From Candidatus Woesearchaeota archaeon (lineage in GTDB: Archaea > Nanobdellota > Nanobdellia > Woesearchaeales > GW2011-AR4): a stretch of DNA of 32,047 nucleotides. Below, one piece after another: positions 1,918 to 25,594 of the stretch. Every line of letters starts with the position of its first letter. The first letter of the stretch is position 1. The position numbers and the translations under genes are program-made. The notes beneath the pieces were generated by a model. The model saw only the letters and a list, made by a program, of their open reading frames with translations. It was not told the DNA's origin and ran no database searches. Location: positions 1 to 32,047 of the forward strand of contig JACPMT010000040.1 of NCBI GenBank assembly GCA_016185815.1, given 5' to 3'.

Positions 1918-2121
1918 TCACCTTTTTTTCTTCTTGTTAAGTACAAGATTGATTATTTCCTTCGGATTAACAATGTCCTTGACAAGCACGAGAATATCGT
2001 TGAACTCGTACCAGTAAACCTCGGACTTTGAGCCTATCTTCAAGTCCTGCCTTGCCTCCTGCGGCAGGGTCAATTGCCCCTGCTTCGTCAATTTCACCTT
2101 GCCTATGAATTTCGCTTCCAT
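1918..2121 (-). CDS. AbrB/SpoVT (MazE-like) family DNA-binding protein
   Basis: From the internal ATG at 2121 the product reads MEAKFIGKVKLTKQGQLTLPQEARQDLKIG.., which matches the swapped-hairpin SpoVT/AbrB signature. The upstream 31 codons of the tracked ORF are AT-rich promoter sequence. Confidence 0.55.
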   Translation of the reverse strand: MEAKFIGKVKLTKQGQLTLPQEARQDLKIGSKSEVYWYEFNDILVLVKDIVNPKEIINLVLNKKKKR

Positions 2122-2220: not shown

Positions 2221-2234
2221 AAGATTTAAATAGT
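2221..2234 (+). promoter_or_regulatory. Archaeal BRE/TATA promoter, AAGATTTAAATAGT
   Basis: The identical 14-mer recurs at 17965-17978 and 19041-19054. The TATA box TTTAAATA ends 24 nt before ATG 2256. Confidence 0.55.
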
Positions 2235-2255
2235 GGTTTTATATTTGCTTTAATT

Positions 2256-2336
2256 ATGGCAAATATTGTTTTATTGTTATTGGACATAATTTTCAATACA
2301 ACTTCAACTACTTCTACAACTACAACAACAGCCTAA
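2256..2336 (+). CDS. Candidate leaderless Thr-rich leader peptide (26 aa, MANIVLLLLDIIFNTTSTTSTTTTTA) upstream of thrS
   Basis: The ATG sits at the promoter spacing used by other genes in the window. Of the last 12 codons, 9 are Thr and 2 are Ser. Stop at 2334-2336. Confidence 0.4.
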   Translation: MANIVLLLLDIIFNTTSTTSTTTTTA

Positions 2337-2436
2337 AGGCTGCTCATTGTCTAAAATTCAGTTTTTCTTTGTTTTAACCAGTTCAATAAAATATATAAAT
2401 CGGACAAAAACTTCAAAAAATAAGACAAAAACTAAA

Positions 2437-4362
2437 ATGCCAAAAATCAAGATAACATTGCCGGATGGGAGCGTAAAGGAATACCATAAAGGGATTACTG
2501 CAGGCGAAATTGCCTTTGGCATAGGCAAAAGGCTTGGGGAAGACGCATTAATTGCAAAAATAAACGGCAAGCTAAAAGATTTATTTGTTCCGATAAATGA
2601 AGATTCAACCCTGCAGATTATAACTTACAAAGACAAAGAAGGATTGGAGGCTTTCAGGCACAGCACAGCGCATTTGCTTGCCCATGCAGTTGTTGAGATG
2701 TTTCCAGATGCAAAGCCCACAATAGGGCCTGTTGTTGAAGAGGGCTTCTATTATGATTTTGGCATTGAGCACCATTTCGTTCCTGAAGACTTGGTCAAGA
2801 TAGAGCAGAGAATGCATGAAATTGTCAAAAAGGAATACAAAGTTGAGAGAATTGAGTTAAGCGAGGGCGAAGCAAAAAAACTTTTCAAAAATAACCCGTT
2901 TAAAATAGAGTTAATCCAGGAATTCCATGAGGAAAAACAGCCAATTAGCGCCTATAAACAAGGCGATTTTATCGACTTGTGCAGGGGCCCCCACATCCCA
3001 CACACCGGAAAAATAAAAGCGTTCAAGCTGACGAAAATCGCATCAGCTTACTGGAGAGGCGACCCAAAAAATCAGCAACTGCAGAGAATTTATGGGGTAA
3101 GCTTTTCTGAAAAAAGCATGCTTGATGCTCACTTAAAGCAGGTTGAAGAAGCAGAGAAAAGAGACCACAGGAAAATAGGCAAGGAGCTTGAATGGTTTAA
3201 TTTCTTTGAGGAAAGCCCTGGCTCGCCGTTTTTTTATCCAAAAGGGACAATAATCTACAACCTGCTGCTGGAATTCATCAGGAATGAATACAAAAAAAGA
3301 GGCTATCAGGAAGTTATAACTCCACTTCTTTATGAAAAATCCTTGTGGGTTACCTCAGGCCATTGGGAGCATTTCAAGGAAAGCATGTTTGTTTTGGAAT
3401 CAGAAGGAAAAGAGTTTGCCCTAAAGCCGATGAACTGCCCTTCGCATGTTTTGGTTTACAAGTCAAAATCAAGAAGCTACAAGGACTTGCCTTTGAGGAT
3501 TGCTGATTTTGCTCCTTTGCACAGGAATGAATTGTCTGGAGTTTTGGCTGGCTTGACAAGGGTAAGAAAAATGTCTCAGGATGATGCACACATTTTCATT
3601 GCCCCTGAGCAGATTGAAGAGGAGATTTTCAGAGTGCTTGATTTTACAAATTTCATTTACAGGGAAGTGTTTGATTTTGACTACAAGGTTGAATTAAGCA
3701 CGAAGCCGGAAAAGTTTATGGGCAATGCTGAAGGCTGGAGCAAGGCAGAGGAAGCACTGAAAAAAGCGCTTGAAAAAAAGAAAATTGCGTATGAAATCAA
3801 ATCCGGGGAAGGGGCTTTTTACGGGCCTAAAATTGACTTTCACATTAAAGACGCTTTGGGAAGGGACTGGCAGCTTGCCACCATACAGCTTGACTTCCAA
3901 TTGCCTGAAAGATTTGAAGCAACTTATGTCGGAGCGGACAATGCAAAGCACCCTGTTGTGATGATTCACCGGGCATTGTTCGGCTCAATTGAACGGTTCA
4001 TTGGAATTTTGGTTGAGCACTATGCAGGCAAGCTTCCATTGTGGCTGGCGCCTGTTCAGGTTAGAATCTTGACAGTTGCTGACAGGTTTGAAAAATATGC
4101 AAACAAAATAAATGAAGAGCTTGAAAAGCATAACGTTAGGGTTGAAGCAGACTCAAGAGCTGAAAGCGTTGGGTATAAAGTTAGGGAAGCGCAGCACCAG
4201 AAAATTCCATTGATTTTGACAGTAGGCGAAAAAGAAGAAAGCAAGGGCACGGTTGCAGTAAGGACGATTGATAATAAGGTTTATTTTGACGTTAAGGTTG
4301 ATGATTTATTAAGCAAAATTTTAAAAAATATTAAAGAGAAAAAGGTTAAGGTCGAGTTCTAA
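2437..4362 (+). CDS. thrS: Threonyl-tRNA synthetase
   Basis: TGS domain (MPKIKITLPDGSVKEY), editing-domain HxxxH (HSTAHLLAHAV), class II motifs (FRNE-like LHRNELSG, GAFYGPKIDF) and an anticodon-binding C-terminus. Start moved to ATG 2437; the TTG-initiated extension from 2347 is low complexity. Confidence 0.95.
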   Translation: MPKIKITLPDGSVKEYHKGITAGEIAFGIGKRLGEDALIAKINGKLKDLFVPINEDSTLQIITYKDKEGLEAFRHSTAHLLAHAVVEMFPDAKPTIGPVVEEGFYYDFGIEHHFVPEDLVKIEQRMHEIVKKEYKVERIELSEGEAKKLFKNNPFKIELIQEFHEEKQPISAYKQGDFIDLCRGPHIPHTGKIKAFKLTKIASAYWRGDPKNQQLQRIYGVSFSEKSMLDAHLKQVEEAEKRDHRKIGKELEWFNFFEESPGSPFFYPKGTIIYNLLLEFIRNEYKKRGYQEVITPLLYEKSLWVTSGHWEHFKESMFVLESEGKEFALKPMNCPSHVLVYKSKSRSYKDLPLRIADFAPLHRNELSGVLAGLTRVRKMSQDDAHIFIAPEQIEEEIFRVLDFTNFIYREVFDFDYKVELSTKPEKFMGNAEGWSKAEEALKKALEKKKIAYEIKSGEGAFYGPKIDFHIKDALGRDWQLATIQLDFQLPERFEATYVGADNAKHPVVMIHRALFGSIERFIGILVEHYAGKLPLWLAPVQVRILTVADRFEKYANKINEELEKHNVRVEADSRAESVGYKVREAQHQKIPLILTVGEKEESKGTVAVRTIDNKVYFDVKVDDLLSKILKNIKEKKVKVEF

Positions 4363-7059: not shown

Positions 7060-7725
7060 TCACTCCAAAAACCTAGGATTAAACTTGTCATACCATTCCC
7101 TTTTCTCGATCTCGTCAAGAATGTTTGAAAATCCAAAAGTCGAGGCACCACCATGGATTTCAATCTTTTTGTCAAAGCCGTTTTTCAGCGCGTAAAACGC
7201 GCATATCTTGAAGCCGGCAGAATTCTCGTTCATCATTTCAACAGGGTTGTAAATAATTTCAATCATTCTTTCGCTTCTGTTAAAAACAGCGGCAATCGTG
7301 CTTGTGCCAGTTTCAGGGTCGATATATGAAATGCAGATTTTATCCAGCAAAGAGTCGAGAAATCTGGCAAATTTGTCAATGTCGCTGGCATCAATTTGGT
7401 TGAAATTTGCCCTTCCGACTGACTTTAAGCCAGGAATTTTCGATGCTGTCTCGGCAAAGAATTCCTTTACATCCTTAACCTTGATGAAAACGCTTACTTT
7501 GAAATGCTCTATTGTCTTTTTTGTCTTGATTTTTATTCCTTTGTACTTTCTGTTGAACTGCTCTGCAAGTTTTTCGAATTTAGGAATTAAAGTATCCAAA
7601 TCATGCTGCGCCTCGCCGTAGTACCTGTCGATTTCAGCTCCTACCTTAATCATTTGAGTAAAGTCTTTTTTGAAATTATTGATATCACTGGAGCTGAATT
7701 CCGACAGAATGTCGTTGTTTACCAT
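7060..7725 (-). CDS. Hypothetical protein (221 aa)
   Basis: Clean ORF with ATG start and a divergent promoter region at 7726-7801. I recognise no motif. Confidence 0.5.
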   Translation of the reverse strand: MVNNDILSEFSSSDINNFKKDFTQMIKVGAEIDRYYGEAQHDLDTLIPKFEKLAEQFNRKYKGIKIKTKKTIEHFKVSVFIKVKDVKEFFAETASKIPGLKSVGRANFNQIDASDIDKFARFLDSLLDKICISYIDPETGTSTIAAVFNRSERMIEIIYNPVEMMNENSAGFKICAFYALKNGFDKKIEIHGGASTFGFSNILDEIEKREWYDKFNPRFLE

Positions 7726-8514: not shown

Positions 8515-10923
8515 ATGAAACTAATCGCGGACCTGCAGATTCATTCACGCTTTTCAAGAGCTACAAGCTCAAGCTTGAATCTCCCAAATCTTGAAAAATA
8601 TGCGAAGCTAAAGGGGCTTAATCTTCTCGGAACAGGCGACTTTACCCATCCAAAATGGCTTGCTGAATTAAAAAATGAATTAAAAGAAGATGGCTCCGGG
8701 ATTTTGGCATCAAAATCCGGATTTCATTTTGTCTTGCAGGGGGAAATATCCAACATTTACACACAGGATGGAAAAGGAAGAAGAATTCATAACTTATTAC
8801 TTGCAAGAAATTTTGAGGTTGTTGAGCAGATAAATTCCGCATTGCTGAAAAAAGGCAGGCTTGATTATGACGGCAGGCCCATTTTCGGCTTTTCATGCAT
8901 TGAGTTAGTGGAAATGATGAAGGAAATTGACGATGAAATTGAAATCATTCCGGCGCATTGTCTACTACCTGGAACCATTATTCATTCTAATCCTAAACTT
9001 ATGCCTATAGAACACTTAAAAAATGGTGATAAAGTTCTTACTCATAAAAGTAAATATAGAAAAGTAAAGGCTATTCATAATAGGCACTACAAGGGTGATA
9101 TTTACCATATAAAACCTAGGTATTTTAGTTTAGGCTTAAACACAACTGAAGAACATCCTTTTTTTGCTATAAAAACTTTAAAAGATTGTTCGTGGACAAG
9201 CGGAATATGTAAGCCTACATATCCCCATATCAAACGTTGTGTTACAAATGCATATCAAAAATATGAACCAAGATGGATTCAAGCTAAAAATCTAGAAGTA
9301 GGTGATGTTTTACTTTACCCAAGACTAACATCTACTAAAGATGTAAAATATGTAAAGATTGGTAATGATAATGTTAGAGTTGATGAAAAATTCTGTAGAT
9401 TAATTGGTTACTACTTGGCTGAAGGATACACCAATGGACGCGACTGCATAGGATTTAGCTTTAATAAGGAAGAGACTCAATTTTTAAATGACGTCAGATA
9501 TTTAATTTCAGAGGTATTAAAATATAAATCAAAAGAAGGAAAAACCTTTGGCGATATATTAGTATACTCGAATAGGATACGTTTATTCTTTGAGGAAAAC
9601 TTTTATTGTGATAATCAAAAGAGAGCAAGTTCAAAATCCATGCCTTATTGGATGTTGAAGCTACCACTGAAAAAACAAGTTGAAATCTTAAAGGGTTGGT
9701 GGTATGGTGACAGGGGTAGCACATCTTCAAGAACATTAATGAACCAATTTAAGATTATCTGTTTAAGGCTTGGAGTTGTACCATCTATAAGAGTGGATAC
9801 TAAAGATTCACATATATTACGTGGAAAACATATACTTAAAAATAGAATAATAACAGCACAAAGTGATAATTATATTTTAGATAGACTAACTTTCTTTGAG
9901 GATAAATTCAATTTATTAAAAAATGAATATTTTAGAATATGCAAGCCTAAAAAAGAAATGAAATATGGTTGGATTGATAACAAGTATGTATATCTTCCAA
10001 TATTTAAAATAATCAAAAAGCATTATGAAGGTTATGTTTATAATCTCGAAGTGGAAGAGGACAACTCCTATGTTGCAGAATTTGCTGCTATCCATAATTG
10101 CTGGACGCCTTGGTACGGAATTTTCGGCAGCATGTCAGGATTTGACAGTGTTGAGGAATGCTTTAAGGAAAAGTCAAAGCATATTTACGCAATTGAAACC
10201 GGCTTAAGCTCCGACCCTGCAATGAACTGGCGCCTTTCAAAGCTCGACAAATATACTTTGCTGAGCAGCTCTGACGCCCATTCATTCTGGCCATGGCGCC
10301 TGGGAAGGGAAGCAAATGTTTTTGACATGGATTGGAGCTACGATGATTTACTGCAAGCAATAAGGAAGAGAAAAGGATTTGTCGAGACAATTGAGATGTG
10401 GCCTCATGAAGGAAAATACCATTACACAGGGCACAGGAACTGCAATGTCTGTTTAAGCCCGAAAGAATCCATTGAATTAAAAAATATATGCCCAAAGTGC
10501 AGAACCCCCCTTACTGTTGGGGTTGCCCAAAGGGTTGAAATGCTTGCAGACAGGGAAGAGGGATTTGTCCCTGAAAATGCAGTTCCATTCAAGAATTTAA
10601 TACCTTTGTCCGAGGTTATTGCAGGCACAACAGGGCATGCAGTAAGCTCAAAGCAAGTTTGGGAAGAATATTACAAATTAATCAATGAATTTGGAAATGA
10701 ATTTAACATTTTGTTGGAAGCAGAAGAAACAAACTTGAAAAAAATAACTTCTGAGAAGATTGCAAATAACATTATAAAAAACAGAAACCAGAAAATTCCA
10801 TTCAAGCCGGGATATGACGGGGTTTATGGGGTGCCGATTTTTAATGATAAATACGCGATAAAAATTAAAGAACAAAATAATGAATTAAAAATCAAACAAA
10901 AAGGGCTGGACGAGTTTATGTAA
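8515..10923 (+). CDS. PHP-domain endonuclease-Q-like protein (TIGR00375-type) interrupted by an intein
   Basis: N-terminal PHP motif DLQIHSRFSRATS..GTGDFTHP. Extein junction IIPAH|CWTPW. C-terminal Cys cluster CNVC..CPKC. The extein is 422 aa after removing 380 aa. Confidence 0.7.
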   Translation: MKLIADLQIHSRFSRATSSSLNLPNLEKYAKLKGLNLLGTGDFTHPKWLAELKNELKEDGSGILASKSGFHFVLQGEISNIYTQDGKGRRIHNLLLARNFEVVEQINSALLKKGRLDYDGRPIFGFSCIELVEMMKEIDDEIEIIPAHCLLPGTIIHSNPKLMPIEHLKNGDKVLTHKSKYRKVKAIHNRHYKGDIYHIKPRYFSLGLNTTEEHPFFAIKTLKDCSWTSGICKPTYPHIKRCVTNAYQKYEPRWIQAKNLEVGDVLLYPRLTSTKDVKYVKIGNDNVRVDEKFCRLIGYYLAEGYTNGRDCIGFSFNKEETQFLNDVRYLISEVLKYKSKEGKTFGDILVYSNRIRLFFEENFYCDNQKRASSKSMPYWMLKLPLKKQVEILKGWWYGDRGSTSSRTLMNQFKIICLRLGVVPSIRVDTKDSHILRGKHILKNRIITAQSDNYILDRLTFFEDKFNLLKNEYFRICKPKKEMKYGWIDNKYVYLPIFKIIKKHYEGYVYNLEVEEDNSYVAEFAAIHNCWTPWYGIFGSMSGFDSVEECFKEKSKHIYAIETGLSSDPAMNWRLSKLDKYTLLSSSDAHSFWPWRLGREANVFDMDWSYDDLLQAIRKRKGFVETIEMWPHEGKYHYTGHRNCNVCLSPKESIELKNICPKCRTPLTVGVAQRVEMLADREEGFVPENAVPFKNLIPLSEVIAGTTGHAVSSKQVWEEYYKLINEFGNEFNILLEAEETNLKKITSEKIANNIIKNRNQKIPFKPGYDGVYGVPIFNDKYAIKIKEQNNELKIKQKGLDEFM
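8959..10098 (+). mobile_element. Intein (380 aa) with a LAGLIDADG homing-endonuclease domain
   Basis: Block A is CLLPGT (Cys1 at 8959) and block B is NTTEEHPFF. There are two LAGLIDADG motifs (LIGYYLAEGYTNG and ILKGWWYGDRGS). Blocks F/G are VYNLEVEEDNSYVAEFAAIHN, followed by the +1 Cys (10099). Confidence 0.85.
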
Positions 10924-18000: not shown

Positions 18001-18963
18001 ATGGCAAGTAGATTAGGTTATACAATTGGAACTTTGGCTTTGGTGCCATTATTGTATGCTGGGTGCAAAGGAGATTCTCCAAAATCTGCCGAAACGCCTA
18101 AACCTGCGGTTTCTCAAACATTGGAACAAACAGCAAAAAAAGCTCCAGAGGGGAGAATTTCTGATGATGATTTGCTTAATCTATACACCCAATTTGTGCC
18201 TAAGGCTAGAGTATATCAAAAGGAACTAGAAGGTGCCGTAATAGGATTCTCTGAAAGAAGCAAGATAAGGCCTGATGATGTCACTCAAGATGATTATGAT
18301 TTAATAAGAATTCAGTTAGAAAAAAAGCGAACAGCAGACGACTTATTGAGAGCGGTTGACGGGTTGAAACTTGAAGACAAAACTAGACTTTCTGATTTAT
18401 TAAGTAAATCATTGGATATAAACAAAGTAAGAAGAGAAAAAGGCGATTTTTATGCCAAAGGACAAAGGAGATATGAAGTATTTATGGACCCTGAATTAAC
18501 AATAGTGGCGAAAGAATCGTACACCGATACTGTTTTTGTATCTAATCCAAGAATTTACACAATAGAAGAAAAAATAGAAGCTATTGAGCTGGGAAATGGG
18601 TACTGGGCAAAATTTAGTGATTTTGGACCAAAGCCTGGGCACTATGTAAGAGAGATATTAGGCAAAGAACTAGAAGCGCTAAAAGATGTGCATGTTAAAT
18701 TGGGTAATTTTCTGAAGAAGGCCAAACCTACCAATACAGCCGAGGATTTAGAAAAATTACTTGAAAAAGAGCCTAAAGATGTAAATTCTGCAGTTCTAAC
18801 TGCCTTAGGTTATATGGGAGAGGGTAGTTCAGATTTTACCTACACAAGATTAAAGCCTAGAGTAGGAGAAGCTAGGGTTTTTACTTTTGAAGATTTAAGG
18901 CAAGCTGAAAATGATGTGAAGCAAAGCATTGCTGGTCTAAGTAAAGTATTAACACTAAAGTAA
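18001..18963 (+). CDS. Hypothetical lipoprotein-like protein
   Basis: MASRLGYTIGTLALVPLLYAGC has a lipobox-like signal (LYAGC). Start moved from GTG 17977, which lies inside the promoter, to ATG 18001. Confidence 0.5.
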   Translation: MASRLGYTIGTLALVPLLYAGCKGDSPKSAETPKPAVSQTLEQTAKKAPEGRISDDDLLNLYTQFVPKARVYQKELEGAVIGFSERSKIRPDDVTQDDYDLIRIQLEKKRTADDLLRAVDGLKLEDKTRLSDLLSKSLDINKVRREKGDFYAKGQRRYEVFMDPELTIVAKESYTDTVFVSNPRIYTIEEKIEAIELGNGYWAKFSDFGPKPGHYVREILGKELEALKDVHVKLGNFLKKAKPTNTAEDLEKLLEKEPKDVNSAVLTALGYMGEGSSDFTYTRLKPRVGEARVFTFEDLRQAENDVKQSIAGLSKVLTLK

Positions 18964-19366: not shown

Positions 19367-19838
19367 TTCTTCTACTTTAATTGCTTTGGAAAGAGCTGGT
19401 TTAATTAAATTCATCGACAAAATTGGATATAATGTAATCATACCCAAAGCTGTCAAAGAAGAAATCAAGAATGAAAAAATTCTAAAGTTTTTAAAAATGC
19501 ATGAGCTAACGGGAAGAACTTTAAGGCTTAGCAAAAGTCTAGAACACTTGAATATTGGCAGTGGAGAGGCACAATGCTGCGCTTTGGCAAATAAACTGAA
19601 ATTAGATTTTATAATATGTGATGATAGAAAATTTATAAGGCAAAGATTTTTATCAGATAATAAACACTTGAAAAATATTAAGGTTCTGGGATTCTCATTT
19701 TTTCTTCATATTTTCTACAAAAAAAAATTAATAAAAAATACATGGGAATATTTTGATAAGATTATCAAATCGAATAATTGGGAAAGAAGCGAGGTATTGG
19801 TTGCTAATTATACTTTTCTCAAAAAGATTGGATACTAA
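19344..19838 (+). CDS. PIN-like (DUF3368/COG2405-type) nucleic-acid-binding protein; toxin candidate
   Basis: ILVVDSSTLIALERAGLI..IIPKAVKEE...GSGEAQCCALA..LDFIICDDRKF matches the PIN_3/DUF3368 pattern as I recall it. TTG start. Confidence 0.55.
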   Translation: MPKILVVDSSTLIALERAGLIKFIDKIGYNVIIPKAVKEEIKNEKILKFLKMHELTGRTLRLSKSLEHLNIGSGEAQCCALANKLKLDFIICDDRKFIRQRFLSDNKHLKNIKVLGFSFFLHIFYKKKLIKNTWEYFDKIIKSNNWERSEVLVANYTFLKKIGY

Positions 19839-21424
19839 TACTCCTCCCAACCCTTAATCTCCAAATCCTCCATCTTTTTCTTATAAATTGACTCAATAAA
19901 CAGCTTGGCAATCTGCTCATTTGTTAGCAATGGAATATTGAAATCAACTGCTTTTCTTCTGATTAAATAATCATTTGTTAGCTCTTCCTCTTCCAAGCTT
20001 TTTGGTATGTTAATCACTAAATCAATATTCCTTTCCTGAATGTAAGTCAACACATTTGGCTCTCTCTTGTCAAGGGGCCACCATAAAATTTCAGCATTTA
20101 CCCCATTCTGCTCCAAGAATTTTGCAGTGCCTTCTGTTGCATACAAATTAAATCCAATTTCTTCCAATTTTCTAACGCTTTCAAGCAAATAAGCTTTGCT
20201 TTTTATCGGTCCTGTTGAGAGCAAAACATTAGAATTTGGCATTACAAACCCAACTGAAAGCAATGATTTAAGAAAAGCTTCATTTATGTCATTACCCAAG
20301 CAAGCAACTTCCCCAGTTGATGCCATCTCAACGCTTAAAACAGGGTCAGCGCCGTGCAGCCTTGAGAATGAAAATTGCGGAGCCTTGACTCCAACATAAT
20401 CCAAGTCAAGGGTGTTGTACTTTCCTCTTATGTCAAGCCCAAGCATAGCCTTTGTCGCCATTTCAATGAAATTATATTTTGTGACTTTTGAGACAAAAGG
20501 AAAACTCCTTGAAGCCCTTAAATTGCACTCTATAACTTTTATTTGGTTGTCTTTTGCAATAAACTGAATGTTAAACGGACCTGTTATTTTCAACGCCTTT
20601 GCAATGTTTTTTGTTGTTTCCTTTATCTTCCTAATTGTTTCAAGATAAGTGTATTGGGGCGGCAATGCCATTGTCGCGTCGCCAGAATGCACTCCTGCAT
20701 TTTCTATGTGCTCCGATATTGCATAAATTACAACATCCCCATTTTGGGCAACTGCATCAATCTCAATTTCCTTTGCATTTGTTATGAACTTGCTTATGAC
20801 AACCGGGTGCTCTTTTGAGACATCCGCCGCTTTCTTGAGATATTGCTCAAGTTCTTTATTGCTGGAAGCGATGCTCATCGCAGCCCCGCTCAAAACATAA
20901 GAAGGACGTATCAAGATAGGGTATTCAACCTTTTCTGCAAACTTATGCGCCTCTTCAATAGATTTTGCTTCAGTCCATTCCGGCTGGTCCACATTTAAAG
21001 AGTCAAGCAGCGCAGAAAATTTATGGCGGTTCTCTGCATTGTCTATGCTTAAAGGGTTTGTCCCTAATATTTTTATATTCTGCCTGTGTAACTTCATTGC
21101 AAGGTTATTCGGAATCTGGCCGCCCATTGAAATTATAGTGCCAAGAGGATTCTCTTTTTCATAGATGTCAAGAACTCTCTCAAAGCTTAATTCATCGAAG
21201 TAAAGCCTGTCGCAGACATCATAGTCTGTGCTTACAGTTTCAGGATTATAATTAATCATAATTGTAGAATAACCAAGCTTATTTAAAGTAAAAACAGCAT
21301 TGACACAGCACCAGTCAAATTCAACAGAAGAGCCTATTCGGTAAGCGCCTGAGCCAAGAACAATTGCATTATTTTTGTTATCAAATTTTACATCATCCTC
21401 TTCCCCATTATAAGTTAAGTAAAG
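19835..21424 (-). CDS. carB: Carbamoyl-phosphate synthase large subunit, C-terminal half (second ATP-grasp + MGS-like domain); start unresolved
   Basis: The frame is open from 21424 and reads LYLTYNGEEDDVKFDNKNNAIVLGSGAYRIGSSVEFDWCCV..MINYNPETVSTDYD..IECNLRASRSFPFVSK.. The first canonical start is ATG 21259, which is downstream of the Gly-rich loop. Confidence 0.8.
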   Translation of the reverse strand, partial: LYLTYNGEEDDVKFDNKNNAIVLGSGAYRIGSSVEFDWCCVNAVFTLNKLGYSTIMINYNPETVSTDYDVCDRLYFDELSFERVLDIYEKENPLGTIISMGGQIPNNLAMKLHRQNIKILGTNPLSIDNAENRHKFSALLDSLNVDQPEWTEAKSIEEAHKFAEKVEYPILIRPSYVLSGAAMSIASSNKELEQYLKKAADVSKEHPVVISKFITNAKEIEIDAVAQNGDVVIYAISEHIENAGVHSGDATMALPPQYTYLETIRKIKETTKNIAKALKITGPFNIQFIAKDNQIKVIECNLRASRSFPFVSKVTKYNFIEMATKAMLGLDIRGKYNTLDLDYVGVKAPQFSFSRLHGADPVLSVEMASTGEVACLGNDINEAFLKSLLSVGFVMPNSNVLLSTGPIKSKAYLLESVRKLEEIGFNLYATEGTAKFLEQNGVNAEILWWPLDKREPNVLTYIQERNIDLVINIPKSLEEEELTNDYLIRRKAVDFNIPLLTNEQIAKLFIESIYKKKMEDLEIKGWEEY

Positions 21425-22689
21425 TTAATTAATTCAATTGGAATATTGTCAATATTAAATTTTAATAGCTCTTTCTCTGTCTCGACAACATTTTTTATTT
21501 TATATAGGAACCATTTATCGATTTTTGTCAGCTCATATATTTTATCAATGGGAATTTCCTTTTTGATTGCTTCAACAATAACAAGCAGTCTTTTGTCAGT
21601 TGGCTTTGTCAATTCTTTTTCAATAGTGTCAAATTTTAAATTATTTCCAACTAAGCCATGAAGGTTTATGTTGAGCATCCTTATTGCCTTTTGAACCACT
21701 TCCTCAAACTTTCTTCCTATAGCCATAACCTCGCCGACACTCTTCATCTCGCTGCCGATTTCAAAGCTCACTCTCTTGAATTTCTGCAAGTCCCATCTTG
21801 GCATTTTAACAACAATATAATCCAATGCAGGCTCAAAGCAGCTTTTTGTTGCCTTTGTTATCATGTTTTCAAGCTCTATTAAGGAATAGCCCAAAGCAAG
21901 CTTTGCTGCAATAAATGCTAAAGGATAACCAGTTGCCTTTGATGCAAGCGCAGAGCTTCTTGAAAGCCTTGCATTTACTTCAATAAGCCTGTAATCCTCG
22001 GAATTTGGGTCGAGGGCAAACTGTATATTGCATTCCCCGACAATTCCAAGGTGCCTTATGACTTTAATTGAAATGTCCCTTAACTTGTGGTATTCATTGT
22101 TTGTCAAAGTTTGAGATGGAGCAACGACAATGCTTTCTCCAGTATGAATTCCCATAGGGTCAAAGTTTTCCATGTTGCAGACTGTGATGCAGTTGTCATA
22201 AGCATCTCTTACAACTTCGTATTCAACTTCTTTCCAGCCGCCGAGGTATTTCTCAACAAGAACTTGGGAGGAATAGGCTAATGCCCTTTTTGCATTGTTT
22301 CTTAATTCTTCTTCATTTAAGGCAACGCCAGAGCCTTGTCCGCCTAAGGCATAAGCTACTCTAAGCATAACAGGATATTTTAATTTTTTAGCAACTTCTA
22401 CTGCTTGCTCCACCGTGTTAACAGCTTCGCTTTCAGGCACTTTGAGGCTTATTTTAGTTAATTTGTTTACAAACAATTCCCTGTCCTCTGTGTTCTTGAT
22501 TGCGTCAATCTGGGTGCCTAAAACTTTTATATTGTATTTTTCAAAAACATTATTATTGGATAATGCAACTCCGCAGTTTAAAGCCGTTTGCCCGCCAAAA
22601 GAAAGCATGATTCCGTCTGGATTTTCCTTTTCAATAACTTTTTCTACAAAGTAAGGGGTTACAGGAAGAAAATAAATCTTATCAGCCAT
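21415..22689 (-). CDS. carB: Carbamoyl-phosphate synthase large subunit, N-terminal ATP-grasp section (424 aa)
   Basis: MADKIYFLPVTP..GGQTALN..MLRVAYALGGQGSG..VEYEVVRD..IEVNARLSRSSALASKATGYPLA.. Ends inside the oligomerisation domain. Confidence 0.9.
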   Translation of the reverse strand: MADKIYFLPVTPYFVEKVIEKENPDGIMLSFGGQTALNCGVALSNNNVFEKYNIKVLGTQIDAIKNTEDRELFVNKLTKISLKVPESEAVNTVEQAVEVAKKLKYPVMLRVAYALGGQGSGVALNEEELRNNAKRALAYSSQVLVEKYLGGWKEVEYEVVRDAYDNCITVCNMENFDPMGIHTGESIVVAPSQTLTNNEYHKLRDISIKVIRHLGIVGECNIQFALDPNSEDYRLIEVNARLSRSSALASKATGYPLAFIAAKLALGYSLIELENMITKATKSCFEPALDYIVVKMPRWDLQKFKRVSFEIGSEMKSVGEVMAIGRKFEEVVQKAIRMLNINLHGLVGNNLKFDTIEKELTKPTDKRLLVIVEAIKKEIPIDKIYELTKIDKWFLYKIKNVVETEKELLKFNIDNIPIELINFT

Positions 22690-22695
22690 GCCCTA

Positions 22696-22874
22696 ACTTG
22701 TCTGGATTGTTGCAATGTTTGGATTTACGAGTACTGTTTCTATGCCTTCTTCGCGGAGGGCTTTGAGGCATTGGGAGCCGGAGTAGTCGAATTAGCGCCT
22801 TATAAGGTCTCGCCTGCTTCTCCGATTTTCAATGAACCCGAGCCCAGAACTAACACTTTTTTAGGCTTGTTCAA
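22696..22874 (-). CDS. carB: carB 5' segment (two exons split by a 17-nt element), terminated by an in-frame TAG
   Basis: SD GGAGGTGA (22883-22890), 8-nt spacer, then TTG 22874. Exon 1 reads [22 protein letters not shown] (to 22809). Exon 2 reads [32 protein letters not shown] (22791-22696). TAG follows at 22693-22695. Confidence 0.6.
22792..22808 (-). other. Candidate 17-nt BHB mini-intron in carB mRNA (ACCUUAUAAGGCGCUAA)
   Basis: A non-triplet insert lies exactly between E and F of the conserved EFDYSG motif. A 4-bp helix GGCG/CGCU is flanked by 3-nt bulges AGA and AAU and an inner palindrome CCUUAUAAGG. See findings. Confidence 0.55.
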
Positions 22875-24078
22875 TAGTGATTTCACCTCCGTTTAATTTC
22901 CATAAATATGATCTGTTAGAAGCGACTTTTCCTACTATGGCTACTAAACCCTTATTACTAAGGTGTTTAAGTTTCTTAAGAGCTTTAGTTTTAGATTTTC
23001 CTAAATCAGCAGCTATGTCAGCAGTGGAAGCACATCCTTTTTTTGATAAAAATTCTAAAATTTTGTTATTTAAAATTCTTTCATTTCCTTTGCTATAAAA
23101 TATTTTGCTATTAACTATCTTCTTTAATTTCTCAAATTTTTCCCCACTAGTTAACCCAATTTTATTATAAAAATTAATTAAACTCTGATAATCAGTGATA
23201 TTTATGTACATTACAATATGCAAACCATCTTCTTTTTTGTATTGTCTAGAAATTTTAGGTTTTCCAGAATATATATCCAATTCCTTAAGAATAAAACTTA
23301 TTTGTTCTAATAAGTTGTAAAGAGTTTCTTTTTGGTTTATATGCCTTATTACGTTCATATTTAAACCTTTTGCTCTATAATTATTGCTTAACATGACAGA
23401 ACCATCATCATCAAAAAAAGCTTTTAAGAAAGCAATTCTATATTTTTTAGATTTTAGTATCCATTCTGGAACTAAATTTTCACTATAAATCTTTGGCGCG
23501 ATAGGTGCTCCAAATACTTCCAAAATTTCTCCTGTAATTGCTGGATAGCCTATCCTATTTTGCTTTTCTGTATATGGTAAAATGCCAAATAATTCAGAAA
23601 TTTGAGTTTTAACTTCCTTTATCAAATTAGGATTATTATTGCTGTATTCAAACTGCCTTTTATTTCTACCTATATAACCATCACCAAAAACATGACCAAT
23701 TAACGAAGCGATTTTTTCGTCATGTCTAATGGGAAACTTAATATTCATACTTGTACCCGCACGAGTTCTAATTGACGTGATATTATTTTGTATTTCTTCA
23801 AGAGAAATCTTTGACAAGTTTGATAATTTTAATATAATATCTAATGGAATTGAATACATATTCTTCCTTAAATGAATCACAAAAGGGTATGAAATATCGA
23901 ATAATTTTGCTAATTCTTTTAATTCGATATTACAATTATCAAAAAGCTTTATAGTGAAGTCTTTATTAAGATTTAATCTAACATTGTCGGATAAATTCCA
24001 AAAATTTATTTGAAATTCTTTAATATTCTGTATCATTTTATAGCTAAAATCTTTATTTGATTTTTGTTTATTATTCAT
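22861..24078 (-). CDS. Free-standing double-motif LAGLIDADG protein with N-terminal HTH-like and C-terminal winged-helix domains
   Basis: LAGLIDADG motifs LIGHVFGDGYIG and FLKAFFDDDGSV. C-terminus LEFLSKKGCASTADIAADLGKSKTKALKKLKHLSNKGLV is wHTH-like. Start moved to ATG 24078 (MNNKQKS..); the longer tracked ORF overlaps the upstream gene. No Hint or intein splicing blocks. Confidence 0.7.
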   Translation of the reverse strand: MNNKQKSNKDFSYKMIQNIKEFQINFWNLSDNVRLNLNKDFTIKLFDNCNIELKELAKLFDISYPFVIHLRKNMYSIPLDIILKLSNLSKISLEEIQNNITSIRTRAGTSMNIKFPIRHDEKIASLIGHVFGDGYIGRNKRQFEYSNNNPNLIKEVKTQISELFGILPYTEKQNRIGYPAITGEILEVFGAPIAPKIYSENLVPEWILKSKKYRIAFLKAFFDDDGSVMLSNNYRAKGLNMNVIRHINQKETLYNLLEQISFILKELDIYSGKPKISRQYKKEDGLHIVMYINITDYQSLINFYNKIGLTSGEKFEKLKKIVNSKIFYSKGNERILNNKILEFLSKKGCASTADIAADLGKSKTKALKKLKHLSNKGLVAIVGKVASNRSYLWKLNGGEITIEQA

Positions 24079-24203
24079 AATATAATAACTTGATTTTGGA
24101 ATAATAAACCTTGAAAAATAAAAATAAGGTTTAAATGTATCCAGATGTAAAGTATTCTCCTTTAAATAGTATGCGTCAGCGGATGTCCGGTGTCCAGTGG
24201 TAT

Positions 24204-24521
24204 TTACCTGAGCCATTTTTTCTTAATTTTTCCTATTATTAATCCTATTAAAATTCCTAATAGAGTATAAAATATTGGGGACAAATAAACAGCAATGACC
24301 ACTATACCTTCTGGTGCTAAAGGATCGTTAGGTAAAGCATTTAAAATCCATAATATAGTTGCAAAAGATAAATAAGGCAACGCTATAAGAATAATTAGAA
24401 AAGGCGAATCGTAAAAAGGAGAGAAAGAAAAATAAAAAACTATTAAACCGAATATTAGTCCAATTACTCCACCTTTCTGCCAATATTTCAATTTACCCCA
24501 AAATTGTTTTGTTTTCCTCAT
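24204..24521 (-). CDS. Small membrane protein (105 aa, about 3 TM)
   Basis: ATGA start/stop overlap with carA (24518-24521) suggests translational coupling. Hydrophobic helices throughout. Confidence 0.5.
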   Translation of the reverse strand: MRKTKQFWGKLKYWQKGGVIGLIFGLIVFYFSFSPFYDSPFLIILIALPYLSFATILWILNALPNDPLAPEGIVVIAVYLSPIFYTLLGILIGLIIGKIKKKWLR

Positions 24522-25594
24522 TTCAACATCCTCACAAACTCATCAAACAAAAAATTAGTATCATTCGGACCAGGCCAGGACTCCGGATGGAATTGCGCCG
24601 ACATAAACGGTTTTGTCTTGTGTTTTATTCCTTCATTTGTTCCATCATTCGCATTGACAAAAAATTCCTCCCAGTTTTCATCCAATGATTTCATATCAAC
24701 TGCATAGCCATGGTTTTGTGTTGTAATAAAGCATCTTTTTGTTCCATTTAAAATACAAGGCTGGTTTTGCGAGCGATGCCCGTACTTCAGCTTGTAAGTG
24801 TCGCCGCCTGCTGCAAGGGCAAGGATTTGATTTCCGAGGCATATCCCGAAAATTGGAATGTTGTGCTTCATTGCCCTGCCTATGTTGTAAATTGTTTTAT
24901 CGCACATCTTTGGGTCGCCGGGACCATTGGAAATGAGCAATCCATCAAAGAAATCCGTGAAAAAATCATAATCATACGGAACTCTTATCACTGTAAGGTT
25001 TCTTTCAATTAAATTCCTTATGATGTTATTTTTGACCCCGCAATCGACAACAACAATTTTTTTTTGATTTGGTCTTTCGTTATAGACTATTGGTTCCCTG
25101 ATAGAAACATCTTTCACTATGTCAATACTGCTGGGGTTATAGAAAGGAACATCATCGTCATTGATTATTATTTTTCCGAGCATTGCGCCTTTTTCCCTTA
25201 AAGTCTTTGTCAGCTTTCTTGTGTCAATGCCATAAATTGCCGGAATGCTTTCTTCCTTTAACCATTCTGCAAGGCTTTTCTTTGCATTCCAATGGGAATA
25301 TTCAAAAGAGTAGTCAGAAATAACTAATGCTTGGACTTGGATTTTGTCGGATTCAAAGTTTTTTAATAAATTGTTTTCAACATCTTTCCCCGGGACACCA
25401 TAGTTTCCAATGAGAGGATATGTCAAAACAAGAATTTGGCCTTTATAGCTTGGGTCTGTAAGCGACTCCGGATAGCCAACCATGCCTGTGTTGAATACAA
25501 CCTCTCCAGAAACAGAATGCTCTGCGCCAAAAGAAAAGCCTTTGAACTCATCGCCATTTTCAAGAATAAGCTTGGCTTCTTTAACGTCACCCAT
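24518..25594 (-). CDS. carA: Carbamoyl-phosphate synthase small (glutaminase) subunit
   Basis: CPSase_sm_chain N-domain (GEVVFNTGMVGYPESLTDPSYKGQILVLTYPLIGNYG). GATase triad region (PIFGICLGNQILALAAGG..HGYAV..QFHPE). Confidence 0.95.
   Translation of the reverse strand: MGDVKEAKLILENGDEFKGFSFGAEHSVSGEVVFNTGMVGYPESLTDPSYKGQILVLTYPLIGNYGVPGKDVENNLLKNFESDKIQVQALVISDYSFEYSHWNAKKSLAEWLKEESIPAIYGIDTRKLTKTLREKGAMLGKIIINDDDVPFYNPSSIDIVKDVSIREPIVYNERPNQKKIVVVDCGVKNNIIRNLIERNLTVIRVPYDYDFFTDFFDGLLISNGPGDPKMCDKTIYNIGRAMKHNIPIFGICLGNQILALAAGGDTYKLKYGHRSQNQPCILNGTKRCFITTQNHGYAVDMKSLDENWEEFFVNANDGTNEGIKHKTKPFMSAQFHPESWPGPNDTNFLFDEFVRMLK

Follow-up and report, generated by a model that had tools for sequence, protein, structure and literature searches.

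Introduction

Leader-peptide attenuation is a textbook bacterial mechanism, which depends on coupled transcription and translation. In the thr operon leader thrL (Rfam Thr_leader) and in pheM upstream of pheST, a short ORF rich in the cognate codons lies directly upstream of a gene for the synthetase or the biosynthesis of that amino acid. An RNA hairpin and a U-run follow the ORF, and charged tRNA is sensed through the speed of the ribosome. A related arrangement involves the mycobacterial leaderless polycysteine short ORFs (Cys-responsive attenuators; Canestrari et al., bioRxiv 10.1101/834739). Here, the short ORF starts at the 5'-end of the transcript, carries a run of cognate codons at its 3'-end and lies upstream of genes for that amino acid, and the stalled ribosome is proposed to block an RNA duplex that involves the codon tract. 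In E. coli, thrS is controlled by a translational operator, a mimic of the tRNA-Thr anticodon arm that is bound by ThrRS. In Archaea, U-tracts are the termination signal and act with aCPSF1/FttA (PMC8716108, PMC7515710, PMC11616081), and internal, partial termination tunes expression in Methanococcus operons (PMC10450193). Transcription-translation coupling is known in Archaea, but we found no paper describing leader-peptide attenuation or an amino-acid-sensing leader ORF there, and none of the papers we found or read describes a U-tract terminator controlled by translation of an upstream codon-run ORF.

In this study, we analyzed a 32,047-nucleotide stretch of DNA (the window) from a Woesearchaeota (DPANN) archaeon, in which a short threonine-rich ORF precedes the gene for threonyl-tRNA synthetase (thrS). 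An initial annotation, which was based on the sequence alone, had proposed that this ORF is a candidate leader-peptide attenuator. Our data indicate that the ORF is kept in at least 32 different relatives and that it is the best candidate so far for a bacterial-style leader-peptide amino-acid sensor in Archaea, although its mode of action is inferred.

Results

To explore whether the proposed elements are present, we inspected the region upstream of thrS on the forward strand. Here, we found that the observation was correct at every coordinate. The TATA box TTTAAATA (2225-2232) lies within AAGATTTAAATAGT (2221-2234) and forms, together with a BRE-like AGAAAG, the putative promoter P1 (2217-2232). 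The ATG at 2256 follows 23 nt after the TATA box and opens a 26-codon ORF (2256-2336), which reads MANIVLLLLDIIFNTTSTTSTTTTTA followed by the stop codon. Of its last 12 codons, nine are Thr and two are Ser, and the Thr/Ser run with its terminal Ala occupies 2298-2333. An inner stem CAGCC/GGCUG (2329-2333 with 2338-2342) carries the stop codon TAA (2334-2336) in its UAAA loop. The T-tract TTTTTCTTTGTTTT is located at 2362-2375 and a second TATA box, ATATATAAAT, at 2391-2400, within the putative promoter P2 (TTCAATAAAATATATAAAT, 2382-2400). thrS (2437-4362) starts at ATG 2437 without an upstream Shine-Dalgarno sequence and encodes a protein of 641 amino acids with TGS, tRNA_SAD, tRNA-synt_2b (class II core) and HGTP_anticodon (anticodon-binding) Pfam domains. 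Its closest relatives are Woesearchaeota ThrRS, in agreement with the archaeal origin assumed in the initial annotation. One correction is required, since the local hairpin is larger than described. ACAA (2322-2325) also pairs with UUGU (2347-2350) around the inner stem and leaves a 3' bulge CUCA, so that a two-tier hairpin extends from 2322 to 2350. This fold has a free energy of -8.1 kcal/mol (z = -2.84), and 0 of 200 shuffled sequences did as well.

To test whether the Thr run might be a chance low-complexity sequence, we scanned both strands and all frames of the window. No other 12-codon stretch contained six or more ACN codons and no other 30-mer was as dense in ACA/ACT. Thus, the run is unique in the window and such runs are not common in other spacers. 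A TATA box followed by 22-24 nt and an ATG is how real genes start in this window (7725, 7802, 8515, 15799, 18001, 19076, 27818, 27958), and P1 shares both sequence and spacing with the genes at 18001, 19076 and 27958. The mini-ORF therefore has the signature of a genuine leaderless gene, although the leaderless start is inferred from sequence only.

Next, we searched for the module in relatives (L-numbers designate individual related loci). Ten of 12 genome relatives showed it within the first 400 nt upstream of thrS and L011 showed it further upstream. For the twelfth, L009, only 135 nt of upstream sequence are present. Of 22 metagenome hits to a pattern derived from the conserved block, 21 have the full architecture, and L068, L070 and L077 add three more. 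This gives 32 distinct Woesearchaeota sequences, in which the module consists of a consensus TATA box, 22-23 nt, an ATG, 12-18 variable codons and then …(L)TTSTTTxTA-stop. The TATA box 22-23 nt before the leader ATG is present in 28 of the first 29 relatives and also in L068, L070 and L077. The upstream neighbour differs between the loci (AbrB-like gene, other genes), but the module stays next to thrS, and linkage to thrS holds in every locus where the downstream gene can be read. In L048, the module heads an operon in which a SKI-kinase::threonine-synthase fusion is followed by thrS, and L051 has a remnant of this fusion gene between the leader and thrS. Conservation of the Thr run in relatives and the lack of similar runs in other spacers had been set beforehand as conditions that the proposal might fail, and it passed both. 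A chance low-complexity run was rejected, since the run is unique in the window and conserved in 32 sequences.

To define whether the ORF is under selection, we compared the reading frames of the variable part. In-frame stops were present in 0/29 sequences, whereas the other two frames had stops in 28/29 and 20/29. The chance of being stop-free given the composition is about 0.28 per sequence, and the sequences form at least 10 clusters. The ORF varies between 21 and 27 codons. Seven lengths occur and all length differences are multiples of 3. Nucleotide identity in the variable part was 0.61, which is barely above the shuffled value of 0.57, but second-codon-position conservation marks hydrophobic positions and an Asn (19/28). 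In 218 kb of related DNA, only three other short ORFs with this leaderless geometry were found, against 33 Thr leaders. In the Thr run (conserved core ACU ACU UCU ACA ACU ACA ACA ACA GCY), codon identity is conserved position by position, while L077 keeps Thr through the synonymous variants ACC and ACT. The last two codons, Thr-Ala, and the stop are invariant, but position -3 accepts T, A, E, G, K, N and V. Synonymous sites in the run are more conserved than coding alone explains. TCT makes up 13% of the Ser codons in thrS but is nearly universal in the leader, and GCA makes up 45% of the Ala codons but is never the last codon.

The hairpin is also conserved. The equivalent 38-nt segment was more stable than its shuffles in 31/31 sequences (mean z = -2.8). 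The distance between CAGC and GCUG varies from 4 to 7 nt, which fits an RNA loop and not a fixed DNA operator. The fifth pair is C-G in the window and L065 and U-A in 14 others. Non-synonymous changes at codons -3 and -4 (GCA, GAG, GGG, AAG) all add pairs with the invariant 3' arm GCUGCUC. The 3' flank CTCATTGT (2343-2350, consensus YYCATTGT), which supplies the 3' strand of the outer helix, is invariant or nearly invariant in our alignment of relatives. However, the consensus structure is only the 4-bp invariant stem, and since its four pairs never vary there is no covariation.

Downstream of the hairpin, we found the T-rich tract and P2 to be conserved. In 24 relatives of the window type, the spacer between hairpin and P2 is 48% T, against 17% T just after P2, and the enrichment is strand-specific. 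A T-run of 4 or more occurs in 22/24 and of 5 or more in 17/24 of these relatives, and the T columns are positionally conserved in the alignment. The tract of the window (T5-C-T3-G-T4) is a candidate archaeal U-tract terminator for P1 transcripts. P2 is conserved in the window-type relatives and places the thrS ATG at leaderless distance in most relatives. Its TATA box ends 22-26 nt before the thrS ATG in 14 loci, which is the leaderless spacing. In the window the gap is 37 nt, and in the window, L007, L064 and L002 the spacing ranges from 32 to 64 nt.

To explore whether the leader contains the structures of classical attenuators, we searched for mutually exclusive terminator and antiterminator hairpins. 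The initial annotation had considered pairing of the U-rich first half of the ORF with the Thr run, but in 22 leaders this pairing was no stronger than in composition-matched shuffles (mean 3.06 observed, 3.78 shuffled). The whole leader of the window folds no better than shuffles (z = -0.22), and no bacterial-type terminator was called on the plus strand in 1900-2600. The hairpin ends at 2350, 11 nt before the T-tract. In seven relatives (L005, L051, L052, L053, L055, L061, L066) UUGUUUU directly follows the hairpin, but the stem has only 4-5 G-C-containing pairs. A covariance-model search of 2100-2500 against Rfam 15 at E up to 10 returned only noise and no leader family. A T-box riboswitch is not supported either, since there was no Rfam hit in the window or in the five relatives scanned (L046, L048, L054, L057, L063) and inspection of the 100-nt spacer revealed no UGGN-type bulge. 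ARAGORN detected no tRNA gene or fragment in the window or in L046, L048, L054, L057, L063 and L011.

Some relatives (L011, L046, L048, L054, L057, L063, L070) add a covarying hairpin of about 95 nt, which ends in the 7-nt loop C[U/C]UGUAA. This loop equals a tRNA-Thr(UGU) anticodon loop. The window lacks this domain, and in the relatives the mimic is located 60-110 nt from the next start codon and does not overlap the ribosome-binding site.

Discussion

When compared with the thrL/pheM attenuators, our locus shares the cognate-codon ORF, the hairpin and the U-run, but its host is an archaeon with a TATA/BRE promoter and a predicted leaderless mRNA. Mutually exclusive hairpins were not found, the regulatory codons are themselves the 5' arm of the only hairpin with the stop codon in its loop, the U-tract of the window starts 11 nt after the hairpin, the downstream gene has its own promoter and there is no sequence or structure match to any Rfam family. 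The mycobacterial polycysteine ORFs resemble it in their leaderless start and their location upstream of genes for the cognate amino acid. However, in our case the codon tract pairs with GCUG…UUGU directly after the stop codon and the 3' arm is not a ribosome-binding site, since thrS has no Shine-Dalgarno sequence and lies 100 nt away behind a U-tract and its own promoter, and the domain of life differs. The E. coli thrS operator carries its anticodon-like loop next to the ribosome-binding site. The UAAA loop of the window does not resemble an anticodon loop and no ribosome-binding site is nearby, and for the anticodon-like hairpins of the relatives ThrRS binding is only suggested by analogy.

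Our best explanation is that the region 2221-2400 is a cis-acting threonine leader. In this view, P1 fires a leaderless transcript whose first base is the A of ATG 2256, and a ribosome translates the ORF, whose last nine codons (T-T-S-T-T-T-T-T-A) also form the 5' arm of the hairpin. The speed at which the ribosome crosses the Thr run would depend on the supply of Thr-tRNA-Thr and would decide whether the hairpin can fold while RNA polymerase is at the U-tract 25-40 nt further on. With plentiful Thr-tRNA, the ribosome would reach the stop and leave, the hairpin would fold and most P1 transcripts would end at the U-tract as RNA of roughly 110-120 nt. When Thr-tRNA is scarce, the ribosome would linger on the last Thr codons and cover the 5' arm, the hairpin could then not form, and more polymerases would run through the U-tract and across P2 into thrS, adding to the basal transcription from P2. 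What our comparison establishes is that the ORF, its promoter spacing and its frame are under selection, that the hairpin, the T-rich tract and P2 are conserved and that the module is linked to thrS and, in one relative, to a threonine-synthase operon. Translation itself, stalling at Thr codons, termination at the U-tract, any effect of the hairpin on termination and the direction of the response are inferred from sequence alone in these uncultivated organisms. We assign a probability of about 0.7 to the general claim of a translated Thr-codon sensor acting in cis on thrS, but only about 0.45 to the complete model with this direction, which sequence cannot decide. The preferred direction, which is the classical one, is supported by L048, where there is no P2 and the downstream genes carry Shine-Dalgarno sequences. 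Expression of Thr biosynthesis must come from P1 read-through there, which makes physiological sense only if starvation increases read-through.

The interpretation put forward in the initial annotation is partly supported. Its caveat that the second TATA box might give thrS its own promoter is borne out, and read-through from the leader is therefore not required for thrS transcription. As thrS lacks a Shine-Dalgarno sequence, read-through RNA may be poorly translated. In addition, archaeal intrinsic termination has, to our knowledge, not been shown to need a hairpin, and a ribosome stalled at the first two Thr codons (-9, -8) would not reach it. The codon bias of the run indicates an extra RNA-level constraint, which our model does not fully explain.

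Among the alternatives, a sensor working in the opposite direction appears doubtful but is the strongest competitor. With plentiful Thr-tRNA, the ribosome would follow the polymerase up to the stop codon, keep the hairpin open and sit directly behind the polymerase at the U-tract, so that P1 transcription runs through and occludes P2. With scarce Thr-tRNA, early stalling would uncouple the polymerase, the hairpin and naked U-rich RNA would favour intrinsic or FttA/aCPSF1 termination, and the freed P2 would make more leaderless thrS mRNA. This scenario fits the conserved P2 at leaderless distance, since only P2 transcripts look well translatable, and it needs no alternative hairpins. The stop-to-U-tract distance of 20-26 nt matches the closest approach of a ribosome to a polymerase in bacterial expressome structures. 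Steric exclusion between FttA and a coupled ribosome has been proposed for Archaea (PMC11616081). On the other hand, in L048, and probably L063, there is no P2 before the first downstream gene, which has a Shine-Dalgarno sequence, and threonine synthase would be switched off during starvation unless the extra tRNA-like domain inverts the logic. The P2-to-ATG spacing of 32-64 nt in four loci implies that initiation on a leadered mRNA without a Shine-Dalgarno sequence must work for thrS anyway, and promoter occlusion in Archaea is not documented in anything we read. An arrest peptide of the TnaC type, in which …TSTTTxTA, perhaps together with free threonine, stalls the ribosome at the stop codon, holds the hairpin open and changes termination or RNA stability without sensing codon supply, is unlikely. 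The invariant Thr-Ala-stop, the fixed place of the stop codon in the loop and the weak amino acid conservation of the N-terminal part, which is unusual for pure codon-counting leaders, are compatible with it. However, the tail is also explained by the Thr codons and by the hairpin (CA-GC is forced by the stem), position -3 is permissive, no known arrest motif is present and sensing free Thr to raise ThrRS has no obvious logic.

We also consider it improbable that the module is an independent micro-gene, whose short transcript (seed-like CA-rich stretch, hairpin, U-tail) or 26-residue peptide acts in trans and which neighbours thrS only through inherited synteny. Its own strong promoter, the T-rich terminator-like tract, the separate thrS promoter and the conservation of the G-less stretch UCUACAACU beyond coding needs would agree with this view. 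In contrast, the linkage to thrS persists despite changing upstream neighbours, the ORF lies in the 5' leader of genes with Shine-Dalgarno sequences in relatives such as L048, L063 and L070, no complementary target of the CA-rich stretch occurs in the window and the peptide body is highly variable. A protein-binding operator with an incidental ORF, where CAGC-N-GCTG with CATTGT is bound as RNA by ThrRS (autoregulation, as in E. coli) or as DNA by a transcription factor controlling P2, is similarly unlikely. The invariant stem pairs and the neighbouring anticodon-like hairpin of some relatives, which hints that ThrRS binds this leader region, speak in its favour, but it does not explain why the ORF is kept open, in frame and at leaderless distance from a TATA box in 32 sequences, and a dimeric DNA-binding protein would not tolerate half-site spacings varying from 4 to 7 nt.

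If our reading is true, this would be the first ribosome-mediated amino acid sensor in Archaea, in which a leaderless Thr-codon ORF reads Thr-tRNA-Thr supply and gates an aCPSF1/FttA-type U-tract terminator in front of thrS and its second promoter. In sister lineages, the ORF would be combined with the tRNA-Thr anticodon-arm mimic to a two-input leader (codon decoding plus tRNA mimicry) controlling a threonine-synthase/thrS operon. We regard this extended reading as slightly more likely than not. Such a conserved example would be a concrete system for testing whether archaeal ribosomes can control U-tract/FttA termination or a downstream promoter, it would show that genome-reduced DPANN archaea still tune an aminoacyl-tRNA synthetase to threonine supply and it would provide a compact part of about 180 nt that can be moved into tractable archaea. 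The tRNA-like domain may be a second, independent new regulatory RNA.

As to similar leaders for other amino acids, argS (14747, minus strand) has its promoter directly upstream and no leader, and a scan of 218 kb of related loci gave no other codon-run leaderless short ORF, but this is a weak negative since these loci are all thrS neighbourhoods. A RiPP-type precursor was considered because of the Ser/Thr-rich tail, but no modification enzymes are nearby and the thrS linkage argues against it. A pseudoknot in relatives between the anticodon-like loop UUGUA and UACAA in UCUACAACU is not supported, since loop position 2 varies (U or C) without a matching change in the leader. An N-terminal extension of thrS from TTG 2347 (ORF 2347-4362) was rejected because it is interrupted by stops in relatives such as L001. 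Finally, a minus-strand ORF starting at the conserved CAT (2345-2347) was rejected, as it reads MSSL-stop in the window and MSSF-stop in most relatives.

Sequence context of the Thr codon run

To explore whether the elements described in the initial annotation are present in the sequence, we re-examined the region upstream of thrS, and each of them was found where it had been placed. The TATA box TTTAAATA is located at 2225-2232 and is followed 23 nt later by the ATG at 2256. The open reading frame 2256-2336 reads MANIVLLLLDIIFNTTSTTSTTTTTA and ends with a stop codon (2334-2336) that sits in the loop of the hairpin CAGCC-UAAA-GGCUG (2329-2342). The T-tract is located at 2362-2375, a second TATA box at 2391-2400 and the thrS ATG at 2437. 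The thrS gene encodes a 641-aa ThrRS with TGS, SAD, class II core and anticodon-binding domains. To the left lies a divergent AbrB/MazE-like gene (1918-2121, minus strand). From reading the sequence its real ATG is at 2121, and thus 2122-2436 is a divergent intergenic region.

When we searched all frames of both strands of the 32-kb window, no other 12-codon stretch with 6 or more ACN codons was found, and thus the Thr run is unique. The combination of a TATA box, 22-24 nt and an ATG is the normal way genes start in this window, and the genes at 7725, 7802, 8515, 15799, 18001, 19076, 27818 and 27958 are examples.

The closest relatives of thrS (66-85% protein identity) are all MAGs labelled Woesearchaeota, with a few mislabelled as 'Methanosarcinales', and the contigs come from groundwater samples of the Rifle, Hainich and Crystal Geyser type. 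The next relatives, at 38-46% identity, are Poseidoniales (Marine Group II) archaea and Chloroflexota bacteria, plus one Peregrinibacteria MAG. Promoter architecture and leaderless starts are archaeal and the window is therefore from a DPANN archaeon.

Conservation of the leader in Woesearchaeota

Conservation of the Thr run in relatives had been named beforehand as a test, and it was clearly passed. Ten of 12 genome relatives (loci of relatives are denoted by L numbers) carry the module within 400 nt upstream of thrS. L011 carries it further upstream, and for the twelfth, L009, only 135 nt of upstream sequence were available. A metagenome scan with a pattern derived from the conserved block gave 22 loci, 21 of which have the complete architecture, whereas the remaining one (L047) is a GC-rich chance hit. 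Inspection of more distant ThrRS loci added L068 (70% identity), L070 (69%) and L077 (65%). In contrast, the module is absent from L072, L074, L076, L078 and L079, which share 62-66% identity, although L011 and L077, at 65-66%, carry it. L074 keeps the AbrB-thrS-SRP54 synteny of the window but lacks the leader, and here as well as in L075 (L074 2261-2500, L075 1469-1714) the AbrB-thrS spacer holds instead direct repeats of the form TTTCGAAAATCAAAGATTTTCGAAGCCCA(A)GAAA. These data indicate that the module is confined to one Woesearchaeota sub-clade and was gained or lost within it. In total, 32 distinct leaders were collected (29 in the first comparison, two more in the hairpin analysis, and L077).

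All leaders share the same layout, in which the TATA box (TTTAAATA) is followed by 22-23 nt, the ATG, 12-18 variable codons and a conserved tail. The consensus tail is ACU ACU UCU ACA ACU ACA ACA ACA GCY stop, which reads T T S T T T T T A. The upstream neighbour differs between loci, so the module travels with thrS.

To test whether the reading frame itself is under selection, we analyzed the variable part of 29 leaders. An in-frame stop was found in 0/29 sequences, whereas the other two frames have stops in 28/29 and 20/29. The chance of being stop-free given composition is about 0.28 per sequence, and the sequences form at least 10 clusters. Seven different lengths occur and all of them are multiples of three. 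Nucleotide identity in the variable part is barely above that of shuffled controls (0.61 against 0.57). A peptide alignment showed weak amino acid conservation, consisting of hydrophobic positions and an Asn in 19/28 sequences. The second codon position is conserved while the first and third vary, which is a coding signature. L077 keeps Thr through synonymous ACC and ACT codons. Short ORFs with leaderless geometry are otherwise rare, since only 3 were found in 218 kb of related DNA, against 33 Thr leaders.

RNA-level constraints

The consensus fold of 22 window-type leaders is only the invariant 4-bp stem CAGC/GCUG, which cannot covary because it never varies. Locally, however, the sequence is predicted to form a two-tier hairpin, in which the inner stem carries the stop codon in its loop and an outer helix pairs ACAA, from the Thr codons, with the UUGU of the conserved YYCAUUGU flank. 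This 38-nt segment is more stable than shuffles in 31/31 leaders (mean z = -2.8). The distance between CAGC and GCUG varies from 4 to 7 nt, which fits an RNA loop and argues against a fixed-spacing DNA operator. The fifth pair is C-G in the window and in L065, U-A in 14 leaders and mismatched in the rest. Non-synonymous substitutions at codons -3 and -4 (GCA, GAG, GGG, AAG) all create extra pairs with the invariant 3' arm GCUGCUC.

Synonymous sites are also constrained. The Ser codon of the leader is nearly always TCT, although TCT makes up 13% of Ser codons in the thrS genes. The last sense codon (2331-2333 in the window and the equivalent codon in 31 leaders) is always Ala but never GCA (0/31; GCT 19, GCC 7, GCG 5), although GCA is 45% of Ala codons in the thrS genes. 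The run is therefore constrained both as Thr codons and as RNA, but these synonymous-site constraints are not fully explained by the hairpin.

Next, we looked for the elements of a classical attenuator. The whole window leader folds no better than shuffles (z = -0.22). Pairing between the U-rich first half of the ORF and the Thr run, which the initial annotation had considered conceivable, is not above composition-matched shuffles in 22 leaders (3.06 against 3.78). No bacterial-type terminator was called on the + strand, no Rfam family matched and no tRNA was predicted. The classical three-hairpin attenuator is therefore not present.

T-rich tract and second promoter

In 24 window-type leaders, the ~32-nt spacer between the hairpin and the second promoter is 48% T, whereas the 22 nt after that promoter are 17% T. 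A T-run of 4 or more occurs in 22/24 spacers and one of 5 or more in 17/24, and the T columns are positionally conserved. U-tracts are the archaeal termination signal and act together with aCPSF1/FttA (PMC8716108, PMC7515710). The second promoter (P2, consensus CAATAAAATATATAAA) is conserved. Its TATA box ends 22-26 nt before the thrS ATG in 14 loci, which is the leaderless spacing, but in the window the gap is 37 nt. No Shine-Dalgarno sequence precedes thrS. The caveat of the initial annotation, that the second TATA box could give thrS a promoter of its own, is therefore correct.

Relatives with a longer leader

Seven relatives (L011, L046, L048, L054, L057, L063 and L070), here termed class II, have the same ORF and hairpin, followed directly by an extra domain of about 95 nt (2479-2575 in L011). 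This domain is predicted to fold as a long three-segment hairpin with compensatory changes (for example UUUCUUAACA/UGUUAAGAAA against UUCCCGACA/UGUUGGGAA). Structure counts on six of these sequences (L070 was not included) support the fold, since 88.8% of cells are paired, against 39-59% in slid controls, and nine pairs change on both sides, against 1-4 in slid controls. The apical 7-nt loop is C[U/C]UGUAA, which equals the anticodon loop of tRNA-Thr(UGU). The domain has no Rfam match and is not called as a tRNA, and it may be a ThrRS-binding mimic. L008 keeps a truncated trace, GTTTCTTAACACAA.

After this domain come T-rich sequence and a gene preceded by GGAGG, but the downstream gene order differs by locus. 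In L048 (4577-8715) the leader heads an operon and the order is leader, domain, orf123, a shikimate-kinase-like (SKI-kinase) domain fused to threonine synthase (606 aa) and then thrS. In L063 (1668-1928) and L070 (2168-2440) a homologous protein of 86-90 aa, 47% identical between these two loci and without a Pfam hit, is encoded between the tRNA-like domain and thrS, and in L011 (about 2640-2950) it appears frameshifted. L051, which has a window-type leader, retains between the leader and thrS a 67-aa ORF (949-1152, reverse-complemented), the first 24 residues of which match the kinase::thrC fusion, and this is a decayed remnant. These data suggest an ancestral Thr-biosynthesis/thrS operon under this leader, with thrC, and with it Thr synthesis, lost in most of these lineages. 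The association with both ThrRS and threonine synthase, and with a tRNA-Thr mimic, makes a threonine-specific regulatory role the natural reading.

Possible mechanism and comparison with known systems

Taken together, the sequence comparisons establish an ORF of leaderless geometry that is under selection, a Thr run that doubles as the 5' arm of a conserved hairpin, a T-rich tract, P2, and linkage to thrS and thrC, whereas translation of the ORF, ribosome stalling, termination at the U-tract and the direction of the response are our inferences. The observation itself was confirmed. Its interpretation as a leader-peptide attenuator is only partly supported, since the element is real, conserved and linked to Thr, but attenuation and its direction remain unproven and the proposed alternative pairing found no support. 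We tentatively favor the classical direction, and for the full statement including this direction we estimate a probability of about 0.45. In this scenario, plentiful Thr-tRNA would allow the ribosome to finish and leave, the hairpin would fold and transcripts from the first promoter (P1) would end at the U-tract. When Thr-tRNA is scarce, the ribosome would sit on the last Thr codons, block the hairpin and raise read-through into thrS. Our main reason for this preference is L048, which has no P2, so that Thr-biosynthesis expression depends on P1 read-through.

The main alternative, which we consider unlikely, is the reverse direction. Here, a closely coupled ribosome would suppress termination, while stalling would uncouple the polymerase, which would then terminate intrinsically or through FttA, and less read-through would relieve occlusion of P2. 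Steric exclusion between FttA and the ribosome has been proposed for Archaea (PMC11616081). This scenario fits the leaderless P2-thrS design, which lacks a Shine-Dalgarno sequence, but it does not fit L048. A TnaC-like arrest peptide leaves the variable position -3 unexplained, an independent trans-acting micro-gene does not account for the strict linkage to thrS, and a protein-binding operator does not explain why the ORF is maintained, and for these reasons we regard all three as improbable.

In its proposed mode of action, the element resembles bacterial leader peptides (thrL, pheM), and it is closest to the mycobacterial leaderless polycysteine short ORFs, in which a stalled ribosome blocks a duplex involving the codon tract (10.1101/834739). 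However, it is not a member of either family, since alternative hairpins, an abutting intrinsic terminator, Rfam homology and sequestration of a downstream ribosome-binding site were each looked for and not found. Literature searches retrieved no amino-acid-sensing leader ORF described in Archaea. Leader peptides are a known principle, but this element would be the first of its kind in Archaea. The comparative evidence is unusually strong for a short ORF and the proposal is directly testable, although the host is uncultivated and the mechanism is inferred.

Other features of the window and its relatives

The stretch between the divergent AbrB/MazE-like gene and P1 (2160-2215 in the window) is also conserved upstream of P1 in L002, L005, L010, L012, L051, L056 and L068, where that gene is the neighbour (…ATTAAAAGTAATATTTAAAGNTTTCGGTTTT…), and it may be the promoter or operator of that gene. 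In L056 (1425-1475), a normal Thr leader and P2 are followed by a first ORF that begins MSKFHNNLRMKIENNNV and does not look like the usual ThrRS N-terminus (MxKIKITLPDGS), but the contig ends there. Elsewhere in the window, the 802-aa ORF at 8515-10923 carries intein (Hint) and LAGLIDADG signatures. On the minus strand (19835-25594), the carbamoyl-phosphate synthase large chain is encoded as two separate ORFs (21415-22689 and 19835-21259), and a 451-aa LAGLIDADG/HTH protein (22861-24216) lies between them and carA (24518-25594).
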